A DNA stretch of 64,000 nucleotides, taken from Minisyncoccia bacterium (GTDB lineage: Bacteria; Patescibacteriota; Minisyncoccia; Phycocordibacterales; DATGWK01). Below the pieces are notes generated by a model that had not been told where the DNA came from, did no database searches, and worked only from the letters and a program-made list of their open reading frames with translations. How positions within the stretch are numbered: position 1 is the stretch's first letter; the number at the start of each line of letters is the position of its first letter. This document shows positions 50,613-51,166 of the stretch, piece after piece. The stretch lies in contig JBBSOY010000001.1 in NCBI GenBank assembly GCA_038259265.1, positions 562 through 64,561 of the forward strand, written 5' to 3'. The position numbers were made by a program, and so were the translations under genes.

Positions 50613-50758
50613 ATGCGTCTATTTTAACACAAAAGCTGTGACTGCAAACAATATTGACATAAATCCTATATATGCTATAATAAACACAGAAGCGGTATAT
50701 GTTGTGCCGCTTGCCCCTGTGGATTTTTGGGCATCTGCCCTTTCGAAAGGATTCGAAA

Positions 50759-50830
50759 TGAATCGTTCCAGAGCTACCGTGTGGTTGTTCATTGGATTCT
50801 GTGTGGGGGCCCTCCTCACACTGATCTAAC
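50759..50830 (+). CDS. candidate small ORF encoding a 23-aa hydrophobic peptide (MNRSRATVWLFIGFCVGALLTLI)
   Basis: AAAGGA SD 6 nt before the ATG. Followed within 25 nt by a terminator hairpin with a T7 run (50853-50876) and a second 13-bp perfect hairpin (50886-50917). Confidence 0.35.
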
Positions 50831-50852
50831 AAAAAATAGCTTCGCCCAAGGC

Positions 50853-50917
50853 CCTGCACGTGCGGGGTTTTTTTATATAAAAAAAGGGCCGCCACACGAG
50901 TATGCGTGTGGCGGCCC
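50853..50917 (+). terminator. tandem hairpins: ccctgcacgtgcgggg+T7 terminator followed by a perfect 13-bp stem-loop
   Basis: Read directly from the sequence. The first is a canonical intrinsic terminator; the second (gggccgccacacg / cgtgtggcggccc) has T/A runs on both sides. Confidence 0.6.
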
Positions 50918-51062
50918 TAGGTCAGATGAGCGGAACAAATTGCTCACCGGATGGGGTCAAAAAATTAATCTCTACATAAAAATATAGCATATTTAAAAAA
51001 TATGGCAAATTATTTAAATTTTGGACAAATTTTAGGTAAGAGTTGATTTTTATAGCACCTAA

Positions 51063-51091
51063 TTGACAAAATATATGTAAATATGTATAAT
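51063..51091 (+). promoter_or_regulatory. perfect-consensus sigma-70 promoter (TTGACA-N17-TATAAT)
   Basis: TTGACA at 51063-51068, 17-nt AT-rich spacer, TATAAT at 51086-51091. The predicted TSS near 51098 gives an about 70-nt leader to the TTG start at 51167. Confidence 0.6.
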
Positions 51092-51166
51092 TATAAAGGA
51101 ATTCATAGCGTTATTTTTAACGTTCAAATCACCCAAAGTAAACCATTTTCATTTGAAAGGAATATC

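Follow-up and report, generated by a model that had tools for sequence, protein, structure and literature searches.

What does a spacer encode when it carries four predicted promoters and two back-to-back terminators? This question is raised by positions 50613-51166 of a 64-kb stretch of DNA from a Minisyncoccia bacterium (hereafter the window), which separate an M14 peptidase gene (49704-50612, minus strand) from a plus-strand gene of the YdjM/DUF457 family. The predicted signals form two divergent promoter pairs flanking two convergent small units and follow, from left to right, the order: peptidase promoter (minus strand), promoter P1 (plus), RNA-1, terminator T1, terminator T2, RNA-2 (minus), promoter P2 (minus), promoter P3 (plus), YdjM leader and YdjM gene. 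Judged from its sequence, this spacer likely contains two orphan small transcription units. The reading favored here, with slightly less than even confidence, is that they are two convergent and insulated small genes, RNA-1 being the mRNA of a small membrane peptide encoded by a 23-codon small open reading frame (sORF) and RNA-2 a non-coding RNA. The initial annotation of this DNA had suspected an unannotated small-gene locus, which is now very likely, and the case has been made stronger by P1 (50654-50681), which had been missed.

Two promoter–terminator pairs in the spacer

P1 is a perfect sigma-70 promoter, TTGACA-N16-(TG)TATAAT, with the extended -10 box TGCTATAAT. It is positioned on the plus strand, 70 nt upstream of the sORF and pointing toward it. 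Exact copies of TTGACA-N16-18-TATAAT occur twice in the 64 kb, as P1 and P3, versus 0.06 expected; both are located in the spacer, and none of 100 shuffles reached two such promoters. Using a rule taken from the leaderless genes of the window, according to which the transcription start site (TSS) is the 7th nucleotide after the -10 box, transcription is predicted to start at A50688 for RNA-1 and at about 50975 for RNA-2. RNA-1 would be a transcript of about 188 nt (50688-50875, plus strand) extending from P1 to its intrinsic terminator T1 (50848-50874). The latter combines a stem at 50848-50871, with the core CCCUGC/GCGGGG and the loop ACGU, and a T7 run at 50868-50874, in agreement with the canonical terminator which had been initially placed after the sORF.

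On the minus strand, P2 (51008 to 50981) reads TTGCCA-N16-(TG)TATATT, which corresponds to 10 of the 12 consensus positions plus an extended -10 box. Its TGCTATATT is identical to the promoter of the leaderless gene 38742-39299, and it shares 77% inverted-repeat similarity with P1 over 26 nt. P2 is located about 60 nt upstream of the intrinsic terminator T2 (50879-50918, minus strand), with which it defines RNA-2, a predicted RNA of about 97 nt (50878-50975). The T2 hairpin (50885-50918) has 14 perfect pairs, including 11 G-C pairs, a 6-nt loop and a U7 tract, and on the minus strand it reads AGGGCCGCCACACG-CATACT-CGTGTGGCGGCCCT-TTTTTTT. The initial annotation had noticed this perfect second hairpin, counting 13 bp instead of 14, and had joined it with T1 into a "double terminator" of the sORF. 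Since its T-run is on the minus strand, this hairpin is a minus-strand terminator, and the two terminators have opposite polarity, T1 and T2 standing tail to tail at an 18-nt palindrome, T7-ATAT-A7 (50868-50885).

The promoter grammar of the window lends further weight to P2. Most genes of the window are devoid of a Shine-Dalgarno (SD) sequence and are preceded by an extended -10 box (TGnTAnnnT) which ends 6-8 nt before the ATG, a spacing that implies leaderless mRNAs; this Parcubacteria genome seems, on that basis, to use mainly such transcripts. The pattern is found, for example, at the gene starts 3334, 4081, 7322, 7878, 12461, 39299, 39357, 47441, 50612, 54583, 58076 and 58328, and about 16 of the 23 good copies of TGnTAnnnT lie just upstream of gene starts. 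Overall, the window contains fewer copies of the extended -10 motif TGNTANNNT than expected (76 observed vs. 103+-10). Under this grammar, a good extended -10 box found in a spacer probably belongs to a genuine promoter, a point in favor of P2.

The composition and the folding of the two units point in the same direction. The bodies of RNA-1 and RNA-2 have about 50% G+C, while the surrounding promoter DNA has 23-30%. RNA-1 folds better than its shuffles, with z=-3.7 when the terminator is included and z=-3.3 (1/200) when it is removed. The fold of RNA-2 is dominated by T2, its 5' 57 nt not being significantly structured (z=-1.6); its 5' end is rich in U, one 7-bp hairpin carries a loop of 10 nt (AAUUUGUUCC), and a check for ORFs in RNA-2 returned none that is credible.

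These signals could have no function and represent either relics of rearrangement within a variable region or fortuitous matches in AT-rich DNA. Indeed, every relative examined has a different region upstream of the peptidase pair and nothing here is conserved, YdjM is itself an orphan, and loose promoter- and terminator-like matches are near expectation in this 3-kb stretch. Against such an absence of function stand the rarity of the two exact (12/12) promoters, the presence of a 14-bp perfect terminator and of another terminator, each at the proper place behind a promoter, the G+C-rich structured bodies set between AT-rich promoters, and the fact that the extended -10 motif appears to be selected against elsewhere in the genome. 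With these features in view, a functionless spacer is improbable.

RNA-1 as a candidate small-protein mRNA

The sORF, MNRSRATVWLFIGFCVGALLTLI, comprises 23 codons and a TAA stop on the plus strand (50758-50829, with the ATG at 50758 and the TAA at 50827-50829). It is thus present as initially described, its coordinates having been set one base too high, and the reported SD at correct spacing is indeed found, GAAAGGA being located at 50745-50751, 6 nt before the ATG. In the encoded peptide, a basic N-terminus precedes a hydrophobic stretch of 16 residues, in which there is a GxxxG motif (G13-G17). Proline is absent, and the peptide terminates with ...ALLTLI directly after the hydrophobic stretch. 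Its maximum 15-residue Kyte-Doolittle mean is 2.39. A lipoprotein was ruled out, as a phenylalanine occupies position -1 of the would-be lipobox.

Some ATG ORF of 20-60 residues occurs in 51% of the shuffles of the transcript. Among 5000 dinucleotide shuffles of the 191-nt transcript, 0.18% have an ATG ORF of this size with both an SD-like 4-mer and a transmembrane (TM)-like window of 15 residues. Throughout the 64-kb window, 7 of 2592 sORFs possess both an SD-like motif and a TM-like window. Another of these seven is a 32-codon TM-like sORF on the minus strand (21910-22008, MAAFTLQWFFDVLWVSFLAFFILKNFLVRYNY), which has AAGG upstream and is located in a 327-nt spacer (21826-22152). The ribosome-binding site (RBS) 10-mer TTYGAAAGGA has two copies in the 64 kb, found only at the starts of the sORF and of YdjM. 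As SD-led initiation is unusual in this genome, this shared RBS is notable, though not decisive, at least two copies being present in 23 of 100 shuffles.

Three further elements were predicted in the RNA-1 fold. A 10-bp hairpin (50690-50712) begins 2 nt from the 5' end and is, in this model, of the kind that stabilises bacterial transcripts. It is followed by a 7-bp hairpin (50741-50758) presenting the AGGA of the SD in its loop, such that the SD is partly masked, with an unpaired probability of 0.3-0.9. Finally, a long imperfect hairpin of 25 bp in four helices (50779-50845) covers the 3' two-thirds of the sORF, the stop codon and the 3' untranslated region. 6S RNA and signal recognition particle (SRP) RNA were considered as identities for RNA-1 and judged unlikely, since its 5' end makes its own hairpin and the closing stem is absent from the fold.

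Based on these features, a mechanism can be proposed. P1 would start RNA-1 at about A50688 and T1 would end it near 50875, giving a transcript with a stabilising 5' hairpin followed by a partly exposed SD and the ATG. RNA-1 would most likely be a monocistronic mRNA, whose 23-residue product may insert into the membrane as a single short helix with its basic N-terminus inside, and translation would be limited by the long hairpin that covers the 3' portion of the sORF. From the opposite side, P2 would start RNA-2 at about 50975, and the very strong T2 would end it as a non-coding RNA of about 97 nt. Both RNAs would finish tail to tail, without overlapping, and the two terminators would insulate the flanking peptidase and YdjM genes from P1 and P2, YdjM being driven separately by P3 through an unstructured leader. 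In this proposal, the signals with their positions, their rarity and the predicted folds are observed, whereas transcription, the RNA ends, translation of the sORF and membrane insertion are inferred. Candidate roles for the predicted peptide include a membrane toxin, a regulator of a membrane protein and an exported signal.

Collectively, several observations support two convergent small genes, one of them coding: P1 and P3 are the sole exact promoters of the window, P1 and P2 both have an extended -10 box, the P1-T1 and P2-T2 pairs are correctly oriented, the bodies are G+C-rich, RNA-1 is structured even without its terminator, the SD-led TM-like ORF is rare and its SD is partly paired. Other observations weigh against this reading. 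The codon usage of the sORF is neutral, with a log-likelihood ratio of +0.56 bits, compared with 8.2+-4.9 in real in-frame windows and -0.1+-6.5 in intergenic windows free of stops. Two-thirds of the sORF lie inside a stable hairpin, as would also be expected of a non-coding small RNA (sRNA), and initiation via an SD is atypical for this genome. The value of 0.18% overstates the significance of the ORF because the locus was chosen after reading 64 kb. In addition, purifying selection and covariation are not demonstrable, as no homologue of the peptide, RNA-1 or RNA-2 was found. Translation of the 23-residue peptide is therefore given about an even chance.

Several of these points would equally suit a non-coding RNA-1, in which the sORF would be incidental and RNA-1 and RNA-2 would be independent, lineage-specific regulatory RNAs. 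The good fold, the inclusion of most of the sORF in the 25-bp hairpin, the neutral codon usage, the scarcity of SD-led initiation and the frequency of ORFs of this size in shuffles are all consistent with such an RNA. A third orphan unit without ORF, on the minus strand at 9150 to 8962, also favors it, as it suggests that such sRNA genes occur in this genome. In this unit, a TTGACA-N16-(TG)TATACT promoter (9150 to 9123) precedes an RNA of about 155 nt containing a hairpin, an extended U-rich tract and a terminator-like hairpin of 15 bp (fold z=-3.8); it is convergent with the gene 7878-8909 and has no Rfam match. A non-coding RNA-1 leaves to chance the rare combination of an ATG, an SD at 6 nt and a TM-like peptide, as well as an RBS 10-mer matching that of a neighboring real gene, YdjM. 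Furthermore, no outstanding target was identified among the 53 gene starts of the window. A purely non-coding RNA-1 is considered somewhat less likely than the coding reading.

The frame of the sORF is open for 60 codons further upstream, through P1 and into the antisense of the peptidase start. The resulting 83-codon ORF (50578-50829) was rejected as a gene, as it includes P1 and begins antisense within the peptidase gene. On the only other contig carrying the locus (Logan SRR24807092, identical in sequence), a gene caller nevertheless took this extended frame as a gene (positions 1-180, 59 residues, cut at the contig end), which is very probably an annotation artefact.

The position of the sORF upstream of T1 also evokes a leader-peptide attenuator, in which transcription from P1 would read past T1 into YdjM and translation of the sORF would control T1. 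The sORF stop is located 18 nt before T1, YdjM is the next plus-strand gene, and Qs/prgQ of plasmid pCF10 is a precedent for a short terminated RNA being leader, peptide mRNA and regulator together (PMC3181467). This arrangement is made very improbable by the layout of the spacer: YdjM is served by a perfect promoter of its own, P3, located 190 nt downstream of T1, and P2 and T2, a strong convergent promoter and terminator, also intervene between T1 and YdjM. According to the predicted fold, a ribosome stopped at 50827-50829 would remain short of the G-C core of T1. Moreover, the sORF contains no regulatory codon run, and no antiterminator was evident in either the minimum free energy or the centroid folds.

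Antisense pairing and comparison with known loci

Is RNA-2 an antitoxin of RNA-1? The initial annotation had envisaged a toxin-antitoxin-like pair with an antisense RNA, and a type I system similar to par/Fst would make RNA-1 the mRNA of a membrane-damaging peptide and RNA-2 its base-pairing antitoxin. As in type I systems, RNA-1 is a short predicted mRNA, structured and with a partly masked SD, which encodes a small (<60 residues) hydrophobic peptide with a predicted TM helix, and the convergent promoters with adjacent terminators are par-like. Moreover, the only direct repeat common to both RNA bodies, the 13-nt GTGTGG(G/C)GGCCCT (at 50801 and 50906, 12/13 identical), makes codons 15-19 of the sORF complementary to one arm of the RNA-2 terminator.

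An antisense RNA with extended complementarity to the toxin mRNA is, in contrast, not found. No extended -10 or TATAAT-like box is present on the minus strand between 50690 and 50980, so that the antisense promoter sought opposite the sORF is missing, and RNA-1 and RNA-2 end before any meaningful overlap, at two distinct hairpins instead of a shared one. The 13-nt repeat lies in the sORF codons and in the T2 stem, away from the SD and the AUG, at which no complementarity exists. The best local duplex between both RNAs reaches -27.7 kcal/mol and involves the T2 stem, a very stable structure that would have to be opened; it was equalled in 7 of 100 shuffles and is thus within chance. The unrestricted duplex, for which 40 of 300 shuffles were equally good, is uninformative. 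Searches of NCBIfam and Pfam did not place the peptide in any known toxin family (Hok, Ldr, Fst, TisB, Ibs, ShoB, etc.), and the locus occurs as a single copy in the 64-kb window. The toxin-antitoxin and antisense reading is hence unsupported, and a par/Fst-like system has a low probability. Target complementarity over the 53 gene starts of the window did not lead either RNA to single out the flanking genes, YdjM and the peptidase ranking 29th and 52nd, respectively, for RNA-1.

The comparison with the par loci (Fst / RNA I - RNA II) of Enterococcus and other Firmicutes clarifies this point. The two loci share convergent promoters separated by a few hundred nt (here with predicted starts 287 nt apart), a pair of RNAs of which the longer includes a small hydrophobic ORF and the shorter is non-coding, central terminators, a hairpin involving the SD and a site between unrelated genes. 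In par, one shared bidirectional terminator gives both RNAs complementary stem-loops, and the direct repeats DRa and DRb, transcribed in both directions, allow pairing across the toxin translation start (PMC7472228). Here, the two terminator hairpins are unrelated, with only T7-ATAT-A7 in common, the RNAs do not overlap, and repeats similar to DRa/DRb over the start are absent, as is complementarity at the SD and AUG. Fst toxins possess a hydrophobic domain with a PXXXG(C) motif and a charged C-terminal tail (PMC7472228), whereas the spacer peptide has neither the motif nor a charged tail. From the par/Fst feature list, the convergent promoters are the sole feature present in this spacer.

Small single-helix membrane proteins produced from stand-alone short mRNAs, of which E. 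coli has examples, form a generic class. The predicted peptide resembles such proteins, as well as divergently or trans-regulated small toxins such as TimP/TimR of Salmonella (PMC7667032), by its size range (20-40 residues), basic N-terminus and single hydrophobic helix, and by its predicted short monocistronic mRNA, which has its own promoter and terminator, was missed by annotation and has an sRNA gene nearby. It differs by the lack of sequence similarity to a described family and by its 16-residue hydrophobic stretch, which is short for a membrane span.

Another parallel is the prgQ/Qs - Anti-Q region of pCF10, in which a strong promoter similarly leads to a short terminated RNA with an sORF and a counter-oriented promoter to a small RNA. 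In this and related enterococcal pheromone-inhibitor sORFs, the precursor is a small peptide of signal-peptide-like character. In pCF10, there is extensive overlap between the transcripts, and the nascent Q transcript is the target of Anti-Q (PMC3181467), whereas in the spacer the terminators prevent overlap. In addition, no PrgX-like receptor gene or conjugation operon is adjacent, and the spacer belongs to the chromosome-like contig of a bacterium of the Candidate Phyla Radiation (CPR) and not to a plasmid. A complete working module, in which the region's strongest promoter would produce a type I-like toxin or an exported signal-peptide-like peptide, under the control of RNA-2 through terminator read-through or promoter collision instead of classical antisense pairing, is considered unlikely.

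Comparison with known RNA families gave no better assignment. A search of the whole 64 kb with Rfam 15, which covers 6S, SRP, tmRNA, RNase P, riboswitches and named sRNAs, at the gathering threshold returned tRNA-Ser as the sole match, and in E-value mode nothing above noise was obtained in 50400-51400 (E<=10). The sub-threshold matches (ncr1175, with 29.5 bits vs. a gathering value of 60, BjrC1505 and ctRNA_p42d) align to the terminator hairpins alone. The units resemble the sRNA families of Rfam by their size, promoter-to-terminator layout and significant fold, and differ by the absence of any above-noise score in this interval. ARAGORN did not detect a tmRNA. The sORF peptide had no match in NCBIfam at E<=10, and in Pfam only a chance match to AnkUBD (E=0.079).

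Flanking genes, relatives and significance

The perfect TTGACA-N17-TATAAT promoter P3 (51063-51091, plus strand) has a predicted TSS at about 51098, which gives the YdjM mRNA a 5' leader of about 69 nt (51098-51166) with the SD GAAAGGA at 51155-51161. This promoter, the leader of about 70 nt and the TTG start had been noted in the initial annotation and agree with the sequence and the Pfam alignment. The leader is devoid of significant structure (fold z=+0.33), and no riboswitch was found in it with Rfam. The YdjM gene (51167-51742, plus strand) encodes a membrane protein of the YdjM/DUF457 family (Pfam PF04307, E=4.9e-8), and its TTG start at 51167 is supported by the Pfam alignment, which covers residues 5-166 on positions 4-155 of the hidden Markov model. 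Its G+C content, 53-59%, is above that of most neighbors. No relative of this protein was found in the genome collection, and a word-seeded search of 5.8 billion proteins returned only its own sequence. Downstream, a single 13-bp hairpin with an A-run and a T-run (51791-51822) has a terminator score on both strands and sits between the convergent YdjM and SGNH-hydrolase genes, in contrast with the two-hairpin layout of RNA-1 and RNA-2.

On the other side, the peptidase promoter, TTTGCA-N16-(TG)TAAAAT (50648 to 50621, minus strand), ends 8 nt before the ATG at 50612, and the peptidase mRNA is predicted to be effectively leaderless. A TGnTAAAAT box is kept 7-8 nt before the peptidase ATG in four relatives (loci L001, L004, L079 and L081, with about 70% protein identity). 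The peptidase is encoded by one of two tandem paralogous M14 zinc-carboxypeptidase genes (48795-50612, minus strand), each with an N-terminal membrane anchor. This pair is kept in every relative examined (L001, L004, L079-L082), while its flanking genes vary. Relatives of the peptidase number in the thousands, the best one with 72% identity, and belong to Parcubacteria-type CPR bacteria (Taylorbacteria, Zambryskibacteria, Minisyncoccia).

The upstream neighbor of the peptidase pair is different each time, across a spacer of 60-150 nt (L001, L004, L079-L082 and one locus without DNA). The GIY-YIG gene, located at 52583-52921 in the window, directly adjoins the peptidase in L001, so that the segment 50613-52582 behaves like content specific to the lineage. 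Together with YdjM and the SGNH hydrolase, the sRNA units look lineage-specific and possibly acquired.

Conservation of the peptide in relatives, whose absence the initial annotation had named among the grounds for refuting it, was not found as far as the databases allow, which is a weak test as no close relative has been sequenced. An nhmmer search with RNA-1 and RNA-2 of 540 kb of fetched loci recovered the identical Logan contig and nothing else, and exact-protein look-ups brought up no strain variant of either the peptidase or the SGNH hydrolase. A degenerate peptide pattern, W-h-h-h-G-h-C-h-G-A-h-h, where h is any NTN codon (L, I, V, F or M), gave 29 genome, 43 metagenome and 1 viral matches with no homologue among them; they proved to be TM segments of larger proteins, post-stop terminator hairpins (L013, L020) and unrelated small proteins. 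A padded 40-residue peptide query found no word-sharing protein among 5.8 billion, and phmmer with a 36-residue query against 1.84 billion representatives yielded two tandem-repeat artefacts only. Viral contigs contained no match to exact 20-mer and 24-mer patterns taken from the two RNAs, blastn of the locus gave none in plasmid and phage collections, and no second copy was present in the 64-kb window. These missing homologues are weak evidence against function, because even in a conserved enzyme the best relatives reach only about 72% identity, and ORFs of 23 codons are seldom called as genes.

The degenerate pattern also drew attention to several Patescibacteria contigs (L013 4316-4350 and L020 124-158, as well as L041, L051 and L054) which share a near-identical gene end and terminator (...TGA TGGTTTGTCATGGGCTTCTGTGTAGGAGCCCTTTTTTT). 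These gene ends are chance matches to the pattern and sit, as judged by eye, just upstream of an apparent tRNA gene.

The spacer represents a new, orphan locus of a familiar kind of gene, a single-genome prediction which changes nothing fundamental. It also carries a lesson for annotation, since promoter and terminator grammar defines real units where a gene caller, on a second contig of the same organism, produced a spurious ORF through a promoter. In a genome in which most genes appear to be leaderless and devoid of an SD, a candidate gene of 23 codons with an SD and a perfect promoter is conspicuous. In a full-text literature search, none of the papers listed described type I toxin-antitoxin systems or small-RNA or small-protein regulators in Patescibacteria/CPR bacteria. 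If expressed, RNA-1 and RNA-2 would rank with the earliest candidates for small-protein and sRNA genes in a CPR/Parcubacteria genome.

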